Positions 1-31,637 of a stretch of DNA of 64,000 nucleotides are shown here, piece after piece (within the stretch, counting starts at the first letter, position 1; the number at the start of each line of letters is the position of its first letter). This stretch comes from an uncultured delta proteobacterium (GTDB lineage Bacteria; Desulfobacterota; Desulfobacteria; Desulfobacterales; Desulfosalsimonadaceae). Position numbers and translations under genes: made by a program. The notes beneath the pieces were generated by a model. The model worked only from the letters and a program-made list of their open reading frames with translations, ran no database searches and was not told where the DNA came from. Location of the stretch: positions 320,001 to 384,000 of the forward strand of contig CAWGYD010000003.1 in the NCBI GenBank assembly GCA_963826785.1. Direction: 5' to 3'.

Positions 1-129
1 GAGAACGAATCCCGATTGGGAGGATTTGTATCCCGCAATCATTTAGATGGATTCCGGCTAAAAGACTGCCGGAATGACATAAAGGATGATTACGGGGGGG
101 ATACTATGCGTTAAGTTAGCGCTTATGCC
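1..129 (+). mobile_element. Right arm of TIR element (copy A, truncated by window edge) carrying the 3' end of a GIY-YIG nuclease gene
   Basis: 48-129 is near-identical to the right arm of 6999-7248; ends TTAAGTTAGCGCTTATGCC followed by CCTTGAGG of a REP half. Confidence 0.8.
2..46 (+). CDS. C-terminal fragment of a small GIY-YIG nuclease family protein (partial)
   Basis: Frame 2 reads RTNPDWEDLYPAII*, resembling the NPxWxDLY C-terminus of small stand-alone GIY-YIG proteins; only 14 residues visible. Confidence 0.65.
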   Translation, partial: RTNPDWEDLYPAII

Positions 130-390
130 CCTTGAGGGGGGTCAGGGGGGTGTTCGCCCCCGGCCATTTCCAACCCGTCGGAACAATTTATTCCAAAACA
201 GAAAAGCCCATCGGCTTTTTTAACAGTGTCCATCCACGAATGAGATAATTTGTTCAAGTTCAAGGAAGGCGAAAATTTTAACCGCAGGAATACTCAAGGT
301 ATTTTGAGGATTAAAATTTGAGCCTGACGCAGAAATTGGGCAAATTAGCCATTTGTGGATGGACACTAACCAAGATGAAAGGAGAACGAC

Positions 391-3553: not shown

Positions 3554-3606
3554 AGGGGACAGGTTATCGTGCACGTGTATGTTTACGTACGGCCATCGCC
3601 GGTACG

Positions 3607-3937
3607 ACACCCCCCTGGCCCCCCTCGAGGGGGGAATCTTTTTATTTAAGGGAGGACCCTGTTGGCTCCGGGGGAGCCCGCTTTACTTCCAGGGAACTTA
3701 ACTCGGTAAAGCGTTTTTCACCCGTTTAGCTTTTGATTTCACACCGGTCCGACACCCCCCTGCCCCCCTCGAGGGGGGAATCTTATTTGACCGTTACTCC
3801 AAGGGCCCCTTTACTCCCCCTTGAGGGAGGTATCACTCTTTACTTCCCCCCTTGAGGGGGGAATTTGACCAAGGCCTAATCCCCCCTTGAGGGGGTCTCC
3901 TCTTTCTTCCCCCCTTGAGGGGGGCCAGGGGGGTGTC
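3607..3937. repeat. REP-like hairpin cluster (inverted doublet with internal degenerate copies)
   Basis: Forward copies at 3607 and 3752, reverse copy at 3908-3937. Confidence 0.85.
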
Positions 3938-6648: not shown

Positions 6649-6692
6649 TCTCCCGTCGGCCCGCGAAGGGGGGAACCGAACGCCCAAGGGGA

Positions 6693-6746
6693 TATTGGAA
6701 TGATGGAATGATGGGATGATGGGATGATGGGATGGGGGGATGGGGG
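6693..6746. repeat. Short tandem repeat (TGATGGRA)n
   Basis: TGGAATGATGGAATGATGGGATGATGGGATGATGGGATG; same unit as 28826-28980. Confidence 0.75.
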
Positions 6747-6998
6747 CCGGTTCCGGGAGGAATTCAACCGCCTGTGCGGGCAGCTGGGGGTATGAGAACC
6801 GTCGTGAATAACACCCCGAAGAACACCCCCCCTGCCCCCCCTCAAGGGGGGAATTTGGGAGGGGGTCCTCGGGGGGGGGATTTGGTATGGTTAAGGCCCC
6901 CTGTGTTCGGCTTGCACAAGGGGACCCTCCCTCAGACGGTGAATGAAAGGGCCGGCCCCCGATATTCATCCCCCCCCAACACTAATCCCCCCTTGAGG

Positions 6999-7248
6999 GG
7001 CATAGGCGCTAACTTAATGACCGATGCAATATCTTCTAATTTGTCGTTCCTCTTAAGAGCGTCATTCCGGCAGTCTTTAAGCCGGAATCCAGGAAGACGA
7101 AATGAACAGGCAACCAGCGGTATACATTCTTGCAAATAAAAGAAACGGCCCCCTTTGCTATTCATTGGATTCCGGCTAAAAGACTGCCGGAATGACATAA
7201 AGGATGATTACGAGGGGGATACTATGCGTTAAGTTCAGCGCTTATGCC
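6999..7248 (+). mobile_element. ~250-bp MITE (copy B) with GIY-YIG 5' remnant, inserted in REP hairpin centre
   Basis: TIRs GGCATAGGCGCTAACTTAA / TTAAGTTCAGCGCTTATGCC; flanked by (C)CTTGAGG on both sides; internal inverted GTCATTCCGG palindromes; mini-ORF 7102-7179 MNRQPAVYILANKRNGPL... Confidence 0.85.
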
Positions 7249-7361
7249 CTTGAGGGGGGCCAGGGGGGTGTTCCCCTCGAGGGAGGCCAGAGGACTGTTC
7301 CCCTCGATGGGCCAGGGGGGATGTCAAAAATCAACTCCAAACGCAAACGGGGAGAACAAAC

Positions 7362-10613: not shown

Positions 10614-12360
10614 TCACCCCGAAACGACGCTGCGGATGGTTTGCAGCAGTTCGTTGCGGTTGCCGCTTTTCTTCAGATAGGCGGCGGCACCCACCTGCCG
10701 GATGGCCTCGGCCTGGTCGGCGGCATCGAACATGGACAGGCCGATGATCTTGATATCGGGGTTTTCGGCATGGATGATCCGGGTCGCCTCGATTCCATTC
10801 ATCTTGGGCATGCTGATGTCCATCAGGATCAGGTCCGGGCATAGTTCCCGGGCCATTATAATCGCATCTTCGCCGTCCGATGCTTCTCCCACCACGTCGA
10901 TGTCGGGGTAATCGGAAAGGAGCAGAGAAAGGCCCTGGCGCATGACGGAATGATCATCGACCAGCATGACCCGGATGCCGGCGCCGGATTTCTCCCGATC
11001 CGCGCCGGCACTTGATGGCCGTGTTTCCGTGTCGGCGGGCATCTTCTTCTTTGGATGTGCTTTAACGGATTCCTCGTGGATGGGGGCGAGGAGGCAAACG
11101 GTGGTCCCACGGCCCGGTGAACTGTCAATCCGGCATTTTCCGCCCATGAACTGCAGCCGCTCCCGGATGCTGAACAGTCCGAATCCCGAGGCCATTTCAT
11201 CGGGTTCATCGGCGCACCGGTCCGGATCGAATCCGGCGCCGTGATCCACCACCGTGATCCGGATATGGGCGTGGTCCGGGCAGGCCAATTCAATTTCCGC
11301 CGATAAAACGTCTGCATGTTTGACCACGTTTAGCAGCAGTTCGCGAACCGAACTGAACAACAATGTTTTGATATCCTGGCGCATGGAATCGCCGCAGCCA
11401 TCTTTATCAATGAGGTTGACCGTCAACCCGTGCTTTTCGTTCATCCAGCGGACCAGCCATTGCAGCGCCCGGAGCAGGCCGCCCTCGTAAAGAACCGGCG
11501 GCGACAGTTCAACCGTCAGGGTTCGGGAGACATCCAGCGATTCCTGCATCAGGTTTGCGGCATTTTCGATGATCCGCCAGTATTCGCCTGGGACGCGCCC
11601 TTCAAGCGTTTCCAGGCTGAACCGGGCGCCGACCAGGAGCTGCTGCAGGTGGTCGTGCAGAATCTTGGCCAGACGCCGACGCTCCCGGTGTTCGGCCATG
11701 GTCAGCTCCGAAGACAGGCGGCTCAGCTGCGCTGCCCTCAACCGGAGTTCGGAATTCTTGCCCGTGAGTTCTTCGGCATAATCTTTGAGCCGGGTTTCCG
11801 TTTTTTTCAGCTCCGTCAGATCCGTCACCACCATGCAGACGGCATCGAGTTTTTCCTCGGAGCTGAAATGACGCAGGGAGACCAGGACGGGGATCAGATC
11901 CCCTCTGCCGGTCGAAAGCCGCATTTCGGCCTTGATCCCCTCTTCCCGGAACGCCCGCCGCATGAGGTCCTCCAGCGCCTTTTCGTCCTCGGGAACCGCC
12001 AGATCCGCAAGTGATCCCCCGATGACATTCTCGATGGGCATCCGGAGCATGTCTGCAAGCCGGCGATTGCAATACAGGATGATGCCGTCTTCGGACAGAA
12101 CGATGGCCCCCTCGTTCATGGTTTCGATCATGATGCGGTAGCTCTGATCCGCCCCTGCCAGCGTATAGATCTGCTCCCCTTCCGGTCCGGGGACCACCAG
12201 GGCATCCACCCGGCCGCTGCGGATGGCATCGAGCACTTCCTCGGTCTCTTCGAGGCGCTCGCGTAGCTAGTTTTACTTCCTGAATCAGATCTTCTTTTGT
12301 TTTCTCTGAATCGGTCACGTCACTTCTCATACTATCGTAAGGGGGCTTCATATGGGTCAT
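10614..12360 (-). CDS. PAS / HisKA_3 / HATPase / receiver hybrid sensor kinase, +1 frameshift near 12269
   Basis: LHDHLQQ H-box, [17 protein letters not shown], receiver LVDDH...LMDISMP; ATGA overlap with kaiB stop at 12357-12360; removing one base restores [21 protein letters not shown]. Confidence 0.88.
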
Positions 12361-12722
12361 GGCGCCTCTTTTGAATCCGGATGCCGGGGTCTTAAATCGA
12401 GTCCCACCAGGATCTTTTCCGTATCCGACAGGTCGCCGATAAATTTGCGCAAGGGAGACGGAAGTTTTTTGATCAGGGTGGGGGCGGCGATAATCTGCGC
12501 TTCCTTTCCCAGTTCCGGCTGCTGATAGATGTCGATCACTTCCAGGTCATAACGGCCCTTTAAATGGGTTTTGCAGATCTCCTTGATCTTCTGGATGGCC
12601 CGGAGGGATTTGGGGGTCATGCCGCTGACGTAAAGCCTGAGGACATAGGATTCCTGATCGTCTGGATGGCGCAGCAGCTCTTCGAATTTTTCGGTGGTGC
12701 TTTTCTCCGGCTGGTCGTTCAT
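12357..12722 (-). CDS. kaiB: Circadian clock KaiB family protein (second copy, N-terminal extension)
   Basis: YVLRLYVSG...[23 protein letters not shown]. Confidence 0.92.
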
Positions 12723-13021
12723 GTCGATCTTCCATTGTTTTCCCGAAGATCCAACCCTACCAGCACGCGCTCGGTGTTGGAAAGATCCCCGATAATCTTG
12801 CGGATGGGTTCGGGCAGCTTGCGCACCAGCGTGGGGATGGCCAGGATCTGGTCCCCCTTGGCCAGCTGCGGATTTTCCAGCAGGTCGATGACCTCGATGT
12901 GGTAGCGCCCTTCCAGGTGCTCTTCGCAGATGTTCTTCAGATTGGCAAAGGCCGTAAGCGACTTGGACGTCTGCCCGGCCACATAGAGTCGAAGATTGTA
13001 GTATTCTTTCCCGTTGTCCAC
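12719..13021 (-). CDS. kaiB: Circadian clock KaiB family protein
   Basis: LRLYVAGQT...[26 protein letters not shown] start with GGAGG RBS. Confidence 0.93.
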
Positions 13022-13050
13022 GGCCTCCCCCTTTTTTCCGATTCAAGAAT

Positions 13051-13182
13051 GATGAATCTGTAAAAAGTCCAAAGTTCGTCACTCCGGTGAAAACCGGAGT
13101 CTATAACCAACTTAGTTTGTAGTAGATTCCGGCCTCCGCCGGAATGACAAAAGCGTAAAATCCCACTTTTTACGGATTCATC
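13051..13182. mobile_element. 132-bp MITE with 18-bp TIRs and 6-bp target duplication
   Basis: GATGAATCTGTAAAAAGT / ACTTTTTACGGATTCATC; AAGAAT at 13045-13050 and 13183-13188. Confidence 0.8.
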
Positions 13183-13295
13183 AAGAATGATGAAGCCTTA
13201 AAATGCATTGTACCCCGATGCACGGAGTTTTTTCAGAAAGGAACTTTTGATCTTTTGATTGCATGAAGCCTAACACCCCCCCGGCCCCCCTCAAG

Positions 13296-13545
13296 GGCAT
13301 TACGTCTAACTTAACGCATAGTATCCCCCCCGTAATCATCCTTTATGTCATTCCGGCAGTCTTTTAGCCGGAATCCAATGAATAGCAAAGGGTGCCGTTT
13401 CTTTTATTTGCAAGAATGTATACCGCTGGTTGCCTGTTCATTTCGTCTTCCTGGATTCCGGCTTAAAGACTGCCGGAATGACGCTCTTAAGAGGAACGAC
13501 AAATTAGAAGATATTGCATCGGTCATTAAGTTAGCGCCTATGTCC
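13296..13545 (-). mobile_element. ~250-bp MITE (copy C) with GIY-YIG 5' remnant, inserted in REP hairpin centre
   Basis: Near-exact reverse complement of 6999-7248; CCTCAAG(G) on both flanks; mini-ORF 13441-13364 MNRQPAVYILANKRNGTL... Confidence 0.85.
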
Positions 13546-13572
13546 CCTCAAGGGGGGATTTGGTGTACTATT

Positions 13573-15267
13573 TCACTCCGTATCCGCCATCCTGCGATCC
13601 GCCATCTCCAGGCGGTTTTTGGAAAGGGTGTCCAGCTTTGTCGCATGATCCGACACGGTCCTTTCGATTTCTTCCTTATCGGCTTCCATCTGGAAACGCA
13701 GCGCCTCGATCCGGGATTCGATGACGCGATGCTTGCGCTCAAGCTCCCGCTTTTTGAACTCGATCTCCTTTTCCATGCGCATCACTTCCGCCTTTTCCCG
13801 GGCTTCCTGGGCGGTGCGGGCCGACCCGGTCAGCACACCGGCCGGACCGGTGTAGACATCGATCAGGTCCACGCCGCTGCCGGTGAGCAAAAATTCCCGG
13901 ACCTGGTTGGAGTGCGCCATTCCCCTGGATTTGATGATGTTGAGCACCCGGTTGCGCTCCCCCGAAGACTCGATTTCCTTCAGTATCAGCCAGGTGTCCA
14001 TCAGGGAGGAAACCCCGATATCCGTGCTTTCAAACGCCTCCCCCTGGAGGAGATGGGTGAACATGGAGGTGATCATTTTCGATTTCATCAGGTCCACCAG
14101 GCGCATGAGCGCGATTTTGACCTCTTGCGCATTCCCCACGGAGATCAGGTTGGAAATGGGGTCGAGCACCACCACCGCCGGAGAAAATTCCGTAATCGTT
14201 TTATACATCTCCGCCAGGTGCGTTTCCAGCCCGTAGAAAGTGGGGCGGATCGCCCTGAAACGCAAAAGGCCCTTTTCCTGGCATTTTTCCAGGTCGAGTC
14301 CGATGGAGTGCATGTTTCGGATAATCTGGCTGCTCGACTCCTCGAAGGCGTAATACAGGCACCGTTCATTGTTGCGGCAGGCCTCCTCTACGAAATGGCC
14401 GCAGAAACTGGTCTTTCCCGTGCCGGCCGTTCCGGAAATCAAAATACTGCTTCCCCGGAAAAACCCCTTGCCGCTGAGCATCGCATCGAGCCGGGAAATT
14501 CCCGTCGATATCCGATCCGATGAGACATCGTAGTTAAGCCCCACCGAGGTGATGGGCAAAACGGAAATCCCCCCCTCGTCGATCAGAAAGGGGTATTCAT
14601 TGGTGCCGTGGACCGTTCCGCGGTATTTCACCACCCGGAGGCGCCGGGTGGAGAGCTGATCCTTCACCCGGTGGTCGAGGACGATCACGCAGTCGGACAC
14701 GTATTCCTCCAGCCCCTGGCGGGTGAGCCCGCTTTCGGAATTCCCCCTTTCGGCGGTGATCACCGCCGTGATCCCCCGGTCCTTGAGCCATCGAAACAGC
14801 CGCCGGATCTCGGCGCGGAGGATGAATTGATTGGTAAATCCGGAAAACAGCGCCTCCAGCGTATCTAAAACCACCCGCTTGGCCCCGATGGCATCGATGG
14901 CAAATCCCATCCGGACAAAGAGCCCTTCCAGGTTGTATTCCCCCGTCTCTTCGATTTCGGAGCGTTCAACCCGGACACAGTCCAGGCTGATCTTTTTTGC
15001 CGCTTCCAGCGCTTTGAGGTCAAAACCCAGGGAGGCAAAATTGGCGGCAAGGTCGTCCTCGGATTCCTCGAAGCTCATGAACATGCCGGGCTCCCCGAAT
15101 TCCGTTGCCCCCCGGACCAGAAATTCCATTCCGAAAAGGGTCTTGCCGCTGCCCGCCCCGCCGCAGACCAGCGCCGGCCGCCCCCGGGGAAGCCCGCCAT
15201 GCGTAATTTCATCAAAACCCTTGATGCCGGAGGGCGATTTGGGAAGCATTGCGATGGGGTGATTCAT
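13573..15267 (-). CDS. kaiC: Circadian clock protein KaiC (double RecA-like domain, C-terminal coiled coil)
   Basis: Two Walker A motifs (GGAGSGKT, GTAGTGKT), FEE catalytic pairs, VSSLMDTW phosphosite region. Confidence 0.95.
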   Translation of the reverse strand: MNHPIAMLPKSPSGIKGFDEITHGGLPRGRPALVCGGAGSGKTLFGMEFLVRGATEFGEPGMFMSFEESEDDLAANFASLGFDLKALEAAKKISLDCVRVERSEIEETGEYNLEGLFVRMGFAIDAIGAKRVVLDTLEALFSGFTNQFILRAEIRRLFRWLKDRGITAVITAERGNSESGLTRQGLEEYVSDCVIVLDHRVKDQLSTRRLRVVKYRGTVHGTNEYPFLIDEGGISVLPITSVGLNYDVSSDRISTGISRLDAMLSGKGFFRGSSILISGTAGTGKTSFCGHFVEEACRNNERCLYYAFEESSSQIIRNMHSIGLDLEKCQEKGLLRFRAIRPTFYGLETHLAEMYKTITEFSPAVVVLDPISNLISVGNAQEVKIALMRLVDLMKSKMITSMFTHLLQGEAFESTDIGVSSLMDTWLILKEIESSGERNRVLNIIKSRGMAHSNQVREFLLTGSGVDLIDVYTGPAGVLTGSARTAQEAREKAEVMRMEKEIEFKKRELERKHRVIESRIEALRFQMEADKEEIERTVSDHATKLDTLSKNRLEMADRRMADTE

Positions 15268-19702: not shown

Positions 19703-19728
19703 GCAAATGGCGCAAATGGCGCAAATGG
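19670..19728. repeat. Nonamer tandem repeat (ATGGCGCAA)n overlapping the ATPase 3' end
   Basis: About six degenerate units read directly. Confidence 0.7.
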
Positions 19729-19742
19729 TCGATTCCGTGAAG

Positions 19743-20275
19743 AACACCCCCCTGCGCCCCCCTCAAGGGGGGAATTTAGAAAGGGCGGCCCCTCAAGCGG
19801 GGAATAATGCGAAGGGGGTTCGATTCTGTGGAGAACACCCCCCTGCGCCCCCCTCAAGGGGGGAATTTAGGAGGGGCGGCCCTTCTCGAGGGGGGAATAG
19901 ACAGGCAAAATTCGCAAATCCCCGCCCGGGGGAGGAGAAATCTCCGGTTTTAAATCCAGGAGGGGCCAAATATTCAAATTCCCCCCTTGAGGGGGGCGAA
20001 GGGGGGTGTCGCAAAGGAGGTTCCCGGGTGGGTGTCGCCGACGAGAAATCCCCAGGTTTTAATCCAGGAGGGACCAAATATTCCAATTCCCCCCTTGAGG
20101 GGGGCGAAGGGGGGTGTCGCACAAGGAGGTGTTGCCCGGGTGGGTGTCGCCCGGGGGGTGAGAAATCTCCGGTTTTAAATCCAGGAGGGGCCAAATATTC
20201 CAATTCCCCCCTTGAGGGGGGCGAAGGGGGGTGTCGCACAAGGAGGTATTGCCCAGGGAGGTGTCGCCCGGGGGG
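19743..20275. repeat. REP cluster with three 108-117-bp tandem units
   Basis: GAGAAATC...AATCCAGGAGG...REP units start at 19935, 20043 and 20160. Confidence 0.88.
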
Positions 20276-28741: not shown

Positions 28742-28980
28742 GGGGGTTAGGGGTTAGGGGTTAGGGTAGGGTTAGGGGTTGAGGGTTGAGGGTTAGGGTT
28801 AGGGTTAAGGGTTAGGGGTTAGGGATTGATGGGATTGAGGGAGTGATGGGAATGATGGGATGAGGGTGAGGGATGATGGGGTGAGGGATTGATGGGATGA
28901 GGGAATGATGGGATTGATGGGAATGATGGAATGATGGAATGATGGAATGATGGAATGATGGAATGATGGAATGATGGGAA
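28742..28980. repeat. G-rich tandem tract: TTAGGG(G) units grading into TGATGGGA then TGATGGAA
   Basis: Read directly; no C on the + strand over ~240 bp. Confidence 0.9.
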
Positions 28981-29004
28981 ATCTTGTTTCTCCCCGGCCC
29001 CCCG

Positions 29005-30974: not shown

Positions 30975-31061
30975 GAGGCGATTTGGATGTTTTTAAGGGC
31001 TTTGAATTGGCAAACAGATTAAATTAAGTGACTTCATTTTTTTTTGGTATCCGCAGGTCCG

Positions 31062-31572
31062 ACACCCCCCTGACCCCCCTCGAGGGGGGAATAAAAAAAG
31101 GAGTCCTTCCTGGAGACGGGCGGTCGGACACCCCCCTTCGCCCCCCTCAAGGGGGGAATTAATGAAGGGATGCCCCCTCGATCGCTTCTCTATCCCCCCT
31201 CGAGAATACGCTTGTGCGCCCCCATCAAGGGAACACCCCCCCTCACCCCCCTCAAGGGGGGAATAAAAGAGGTCCCCTCTGGAGACGGGCGGTCGGACAC
31301 CCCCCTTCGCCCCCCTCAAGGGGGGAATTATGAAGGGATGCCCCACGATCGCTTCTCTATCCCCCTCGAGAATACGCTTTGCGCCCCCATCAAGGGAACA
31401 CCCCCCTCACCCCTCAAGGGGATAAAGAGGTCCCCTCTGGGACGGGCGGGGACACCCCCTGCCCCCCTCAAGGGAACACCCCCCCTCACCCCCCTCGAGG
31501 GGGGAATAAATGAAGGGAGAGGCGAGAATCCTTTTTTCAATTCCCCCCTTGAGGGGGGCGAAGGGGGGTGTC
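31062..31572. repeat. REP cluster with ~169-bp tandem units
   Basis: GGAGACGGGCGGTCGGACACCCCCC at 31112 and 31281, degenerate third at ~31439. Confidence 0.88.
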
Positions 31573-31637
31573 CCCGCGCCGGTGCCGACAACGGGCAGAA
31601 AGACACCCGCTGTTTCAATCCATACGCAAGAAAAGCT

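Follow-up and report, generated by a model that had tools for sequence, protein, structure and literature searches.

The window analysed here, a stretch of 64,000 nucleotides from an uncultured delta proteobacterium, carries near position 7,000 a short repeated element which raises the question of how a gene for a GIY-YIG nuclease, framed by two hairpins, came to lie between transposon ends without a transposase, and of what moves such an element. The answer considered highly probable is that the element is a cassette lacking a transposase, with ends of the IS421/IS186 type, which an IS421-type DDE transposase probably moves in trans into G/C-rich palindromes; its 473-bp form carries the gene of a predicted Ssn-type hairpin nuclease.

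Copies, boundaries and the deleted form

Three copies of the mini-transposon (A, B and C) were found in the window, by the letters and by genome BLAST, at the places given by a first-pass annotation of this DNA. The 30-nt hairpin occurs in the window five times and the end motif three times (with at most one mismatch), while each of 100 shuffles contained neither. The annotation had described terminal inverted repeats of about 19 bp and a duplication of about 8 bp. The ends are real, but their sizes had to be revised: comparison of the flanks gave repeats of 17 bp (CATA..TATG), and the outer GG/CC proved to be part of a target duplication of 11 bp. This direct duplication becomes visible in the flanks once the boundaries are shifted by two bases, to CATA..TATG.

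Copy B is an internally deleted MITE form of 246 bp on the forward strand (7001..7246). It is enclosed by the left copy of its 11-bp duplication, located inside a G/C palindromic repeat (6990..7000, forward strand, 0 mismatches), and the right copy (7247..7257, forward strand). The left 17-bp terminal inverted repeat (7001..7017, forward strand) is identical to the IS421 end at 16 of 17 bases, and the right one (7229..7246, reverse strand) has one extra base. The inverted hairpin pair, the AGGAAG motif and the 25-codon ORF all lie where they had been claimed. The left Ssn-type hairpin is CGTC-tagged (7060..7092, forward strand) and has one mismatch to the published SRM pattern; the right one is TGTC-tagged and inverted (7166..7198, reverse strand). 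The remnant ORF (7102..7179, forward strand) consists of the first 18 codons of ssn, one of them changed, and of junction-derived codons.

Copy C, a deleted element of 245 bp on the reverse strand (13298..13542), has the same junction as B, a remnant ORF at 13441-13364 and its target duplication at 13544-13554 and 13287-13297. Its right end shows four differences, and one extra base is present at its left junction. Some of the differences that damage the ends of B and C may be assembly errors. Copy A had been taken for a partial copy; it is the 3' end (last 127 bp; 1..127, forward strand) of an intact 473-bp element, which starts 345 bp upstream of the window (G000:C3:319655-320127). Within the window it comprises the last codons of the 96-aa GIY-YIG gene (1-46), the right hairpin (49-78) and the right terminal repeat (111-127), which matches the IS421 end in all 17 bases, and it is followed by the right copy of its 11-bp target duplication (128..138, forward strand, one mismatch to the left copy).

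BLAST of copy B against the assembly, followed by extraction of the copies, gave 12 two-ended copies in the genome, which share the boundaries seen in the window. Five are intact and 473 bp long, each with the 96-aa ORF; five are 245/246 bp long; one copy of 475 bp has a frameshift, and one of 406 bp has a deletion different from that of the short form. The intact copies confirm that a non-autonomous transposon carries a palindrome-GIY-YIG-palindrome unit. An older, one-ended variant with an intact gene (93% identical) and a few relics are also present in the genome. The duplications are perfect at 11 bp in 7 of the 12 copies and off by 1-2 bases or one extra base in the other five; the best-fit length is 11 bp in nine copies and 10 or 12 bp in the other three. 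Leaving aside the right ends of B and C, each arm shows 0-2 differences among the canonical copies, which points to a recent amplification.

All five short copies, B and C included, have a common junction at which 9 bp stand in place of 237 bp of the gene, and each of these copies is located at its own target site. As the junction is one and the same, a single deletion was followed by further transposition, in agreement with the earlier proposal that an internally deleted form spread afterwards. Since the 245-bp deleted form was amplified further, the nuclease gene is not needed in cis.

Ends, target sites and transposases

Both ends of the E. coli IS421 are the same as the right end of the element at 17 of 17 bases, and the one IS421 site compared has an 11-bp duplication. 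The IS231 subgroup of the IS4 family has been characterized by the end signature CAT-------AA--TAA and duplications of 10-12 bp (PMC2266710); the ends of the element show this signature, and the length of its duplication lies within this range. An exact end-motif scan of GTDB contigs gave at least 122 stretches, with 120 loci examined, and among the matches listed 42 elements have both ends. A perfect 11-bp duplication was found in 14 of these 42 relatives from other genomes with the same boundaries, and a 10-bp one in a further element (among the matches listed). At least eight of the 42 listed, 1.3-1.5 kb in length, have a transposase gene. The transposase bounded by the same terminal repeats that the first-pass annotation proposed to look for is thus present in other genomes, while none was found in the source assembly. 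Two of two transposases scanned from these autonomous elements pass the NCBIfam IS4 cut-off, Y-2-R-3-E-6-K is kept in all four aligned, and one of them is 31-34% identical to the IS421 transposase and retrieves E. coli elements annotated as IS421. Judging from its sequence, the element is a non-autonomous member of the IS231 subgroup of the IS4 family, with IS421/IS186-type ends.

The search of the source assembly (87.8% complete) by tblastn and an HMM built from eight autonomous elements yielded no IS421-type transposase; the IS4 profile NF033592 gave three weak matches in the genome, below the cut-off and not of the IS421 type. At 1e-20 the transposase profile matched 2 of 57 genomes of the same family. 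In one of these two genomes the transposase gene is split into two contig-end pieces, each beside a variant end. Four other genomes with ends beside ssn contained no full-length transposase match, only one short fragment and two weak matches. The end motif, allowing up to two mismatches, gave three single matches in 60 relatives, which is near background. Viral contigs gave 119 matches to the end motif; 102 were ends of the E. coli IS421, and none of the 119 had ssn. Y1/RAYT transposases (five matches in the genome) were set aside as movers, the ends and the duplication being of the DDE type.

The insertion context had escaped the first reading: all 12 copies lie inside a second repeat family, which is G/C-rich and palindromic. 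According to the empty target sites reconstructed from the flanks of the inserted copies, 11 of the 12 insertions occurred at the tip of the C6-N4-G6 palindrome of this repeat and one in its G-rich tail, with the polarity C-run..G-run at 11 sites and G-run..G-run at one. The target repeat has about 280-320 copies, roughly 0.3% of the genome, and is present throughout the window (e.g., at 3590-3640, 19728-20275 and 31045-31587). It may be a BoxC-like repeat (after E. coli BoxC). The only DUF559 gene of the genome is also bracketed by this repeat (G000:C5:9100-10100). Copy B has a zinc dehydrogenase gene and a FAD oxidoreductase gene as neighbours, and copy C lies between kaiC and kaiB-like genes (window 12357-15267), where a 134-bp MITE is packed in as well; neither copy interrupts a gene.

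The element resembles IS421/IS186 of E. coli in the identical 17-bp end, the 11-bp duplication (IS421) and the G/C-run target flanks. Unlike them, it has no transposase, carries a nuclease cassette and has an interior which is not IS421-like. IS186 is described as an IS4/IS231 element with a G/C-run target, GGGG-N6/7-CCCC (PMC5009759), whereas the element targets C-run..G-run at a palindrome tip; because its target is not GGGG-N6/7-CCCC, it should be called IS186-like and not IS186. MIC231 of Bacillus cereus sensu lato, whose length ranges from about 700 bp to 3 kb, is reported to be trans-mobilised by IS231 (PMC6199540). It shares with the element two ends of the IS231 subgroup, the lack of a transposase and a passenger gene, and the 473-bp form has what defines a MIC (two IRs, no transposase, at least one passenger CDS). 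Unlike MIC231, the element has IS421-type ends, a length of 473 bp, a nuclease passenger with its own target hairpins and a MITE derivative. From the 12 distinct duplicated sites, and by analogy with IS231 acting on MIC231, we infer that the cassette was mobilised in trans.

Cargo, its relatives and rival explanations

The 96-aa protein is a single GIY-YIG domain (54 bits in Pfam against a cut-off of 22.6). The GIY-YIG identity proposed at first therefore holds for the full-length cargo but not for the 25-aa remnant peptide, which alone has no match in Pfam or NCBIfam. The best match in the plasmid collection is a 94-aa N. gonorrhoeae protein, located among NTS repeats, to which the cargo protein is 62.4% identical over 93 of its 96 aa. 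Ssn proteins are defined as single-domain GIY-YIG proteins of about 95 aa that share 60% identity or more with SsnA across 75% of their length (PMC11893778); the identity and length of the 96-aa protein are within these bounds as measured against the N. gonorrhoeae homologue and not the N. meningitidis protein. Residues Y8, Y19 and E66 of the intact copies are in register with the catalytic residues of SsnA, numbered Y6, Y17 and E64 (PMC11893778). The remnant ORFs of B and C keep only Y8, having neither the second tyrosine nor the catalytic glutamate. A PDB sequence search with the 96-aa protein gave no match, and a promoter scan found no sigma-70-like promoter in copy B.

Both hairpins flanking the gene are one mismatch away from the published SRM pattern, none being exact, and their loop is longer. 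In ssDNA, SsnA binds SRM-type hairpins and makes its cut a few bases to their 5' side (PMC11893778). By analogy, the 96-aa protein is predicted to cut ssDNA beside its two flanking hairpins. By sequence comparison, the cargo corresponds to the Ssn/SRM system described in Chenal et al. 2025 and is no unknown unit: it shares with Neisseria SsnA and NTS/SRM the single-domain GIY-YIG protein (96 aa, 62% identity) and CGTC/TGTC-tagged inverted hairpins on both sides. Unlike the Neisseria unit, it is enclosed in transposon ends with target duplications, is amplified and has a longer hairpin loop. NTS-ssnA-NTS was itself likened to an IS by Chenal et al. 2025 (PMC11893778), whose main text mentions no terminal inverted repeats, MITEs or IS1595 around ssn. 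The hairpins also resemble the CGTC-tagged REP families (PMC3733652) in the CGTC/TGTC tag, the 8-bp stem, the CCA tail and the head-to-head pairing; unlike the repeats as described there, they lie inside DDE-type MITEs. A free Ssn paralogue in the same genome (G000:C4:167150-167560) is 63% identical, has another hairpin variant and lacks terminal repeats.

A metagenome scan requiring an end next to a hairpin start found at least 122 loci. It demonstrates spread and not frequency, being enriched by design and including near-duplicates. Among the matches listed, at least 46 of the 122 loci are two-ended, at least 21 of these with a GIY-YIG ORF, and at least 36 one-ended loci have such an ORF. 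In the less biased GTDB scan, among the matches listed, ssn was found in 2 of 42 two-ended elements (one genome) and a DUF559-type gene in 4 of 42, two of them confirmed by Pfam; in these, IS421-type ends enclose the DUF559 genes together with G/C palindromes of their own (L035:2018-2519, L037, L063 and L068:1971-2519). The two-ended elements contain several palindrome types as inner stems, and the longest inner stem exceeded all five shuffles in 25 of the 34 non-autonomous ones among the matches listed. Of the best 29 ssn loci from 250 genomes of the order, one has both ends and two have one end. A free relative (L295; 79%) has the long-loop hairpin variant of the element without the ends. 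Another lineage (L225) possesses its own 95-bp deletion derivative. At the locus L144 the upstream hairpin contains the start of a different, CATA-type end, as though a further IS4-type element had landed there.

Several other explanations can be weighed against this material. That the copies are an assembly artefact deserves hardly any credence. The assembly does have indel-rich stretches, for example around the decayed-looking copy at C6:201848, but each copy has its own flanks with a matching duplication, the long form is found on a contig of a public DNA run (its inner part only, without flanks, the share of the genome in this run being small), and the design recurs in other genomes. Equally little can be said for the IS1 or IS1595 family, to which the ends had been assigned in the first-pass annotation. 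The duplication of IS1595 and IS1 is about 8-9 bp. The GG of the superficial GG-N10-AACTTA likeness falls in the 11-bp duplication; the ends equal those of IS421 and are shared by at least eight autonomous elements, both tested being IS4; and the genome has no match to an IS1595 or IS1 profile (PF12762 or PF03400). The GIY-YIG protein is very unlikely to act as transposase for the element as a whole, even if it is the only gene there and the assembly has no IS4 helper: IS4-type ends and 11-bp duplications together mark a DDE reaction, such ends also travel in the absence of ssn, accompanied by a transposase or by DUF559 cargo, and at least 26 of the 29 related ssn loci lack such ends.

The protein might instead act on its own loading, Ssn nicks outside the hairpins serving to load, swap or flip the gene between hairpin pairs of pre-existing IS4-type MITEs in a homing-like manner, with a DDE transposase moving the shell. 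The cut of SsnA lies a few bases from the hairpin on its 5' side, which here points outward at both flanks. The 5' and 3' spacers between end and hairpin form 25 clusters, with many groups unrelated to one another, and gene-less shells with a hairpin pair are common. The gene of L144 is nearly identical to that of L047 but inverted with respect to a spacer common to both, and in L221 a different ssn is reversed behind a similar spacer. In addition, ssn within the shells is under purifying selection, with dN/dS of 0.06-0.23 in three shell groups, intact ORFs only being counted. Such flips can, however, be explained by ordinary recombination between the inverted hairpins, with no need for the nuclease. 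The short form of the present element arose by loss, its breakpoint lying within the gene and not at the predicted cut site. The Ssn protein tree was built from 48 end-bound and 23 free proteins (71 distinct of 76), with broken and short ORFs left out; the best tree requires at least six label changes and its backbone is not resolved, and one clade of end-bound Ssn was not rejected (AU p=0.087), so that a single origin of the end-bound genes is still compatible with it. Loading by the nuclease is accordingly regarded as improbable. Slightly less unlikely is that the host retains the nuclease to restrict incoming ssDNA, the cassette raising the gene dose and spreading the target hairpins, which would be compatible with transposition in trans. 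SsnA of Neisseria lowers transformation by NTS-bearing DNA (PMC11893778), and five intact two-ended copies and one intact one-ended copy coexist in one genome. The purifying selection would also fit, but that estimate comes from intact ORFs; 5 of the 12 copies represent a dead form whose spread was no less successful, two more are broken, and copy B has no recognizable sigma-70-like promoter.

Trans-mobilisation by an IS421-type transposase is preferred to all of these. A free hairpin-ssn-hairpin unit would have been captured between two IS421-type ends; an IS421-type transposase would recognise the 17-bp ends and, cutting with a stagger of 11 bp, insert the cassette into the tips of palindromes. 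The 473-bp cassette would then have been amplified recently, one copy losing 237 bp of the gene and the resulting 245-bp form being amplified further, with the nuclease as cargo. The helper transposase would have been lost from the genome or be missing from the assembly. Several points speak against this explanation: the assembly lacks an IS421-type transposase, four other genomes with ends beside ssn gave no full-length match to one, the target polarity is unlike that of IS186, the hairpins are one base off the SRM pattern, and the empty sites are reconstructions from the flanks, no empty allele having been seen.

A second MITE family and the spread of SRM-like hairpins

The genome harbours a second MITE family, 134 bp long, with ends (TGATG..CATCA) unrelated to those of the first family and with an inverted SRM pair. 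It is represented by 42 loci, 32 of them full length, mostly with a duplication of 4-5 bp; the copy in the window (13050-13183) is 115 bp away from copy C. Its end motif was found in 91 of 121 genomes of the order, with up to 641 matches, and no autonomous partner was detected in 33 loci. Of the 114 SRM-like hairpins of the genome, 21 belong to the first family, 67 to the 134-bp MITE and 26 lie outside; hence 88 are located inside the two MITE families, the chance level being about 4 per Mb (one shuffle).

Both components, MIC-type cassettes and Ssn/SRM units, are known from earlier work. In the literature searched, beyond which most subscription papers lie, no report of Ssn inside IS4-type ends was found. 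Di Nocera et al. 2013 state that no dedicated transposase was found for the CGTC repeats they describe (PMC3733652). The present element suggests that borrowed transposon ends can serve as vehicles for the spread of hairpin repeats together with their nucleases. As a unit with transposition scars, it offers a concrete and assayable route of spread for CGTC/SRM hairpins, namely hitchhiking on DDE transposon ends, and it also supplies new pairs of Ssn and hairpin, the hairpin being long-looped. A more general proposal can be put forward only tentatively, its chances being somewhat below even: the IS421-type ends and the second MITE may act as a general shuttle which loads Ssn/DUF559 units, spreads into G/C palindromes and drops the gene, so that hairpin doublets stay behind. 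In these genomes it would be a main route for the multiplication of CGTC/SRM hairpins, long considered to lack a transposase, with Ssn nicks possibly aiding the loading or swapping of cargo.

A group II intron-type reverse transcriptase element with a 408-aa ORF has inserted next to the hairpins in three of the 134-bp MITE copies (C5:304619-306607, C5:280851-282832 and C10:16660-18641 of G000). The window also contains intergenic arrays of an 8-bp GGAATGAT-like unit at 6672-6758 and 28840-28997.
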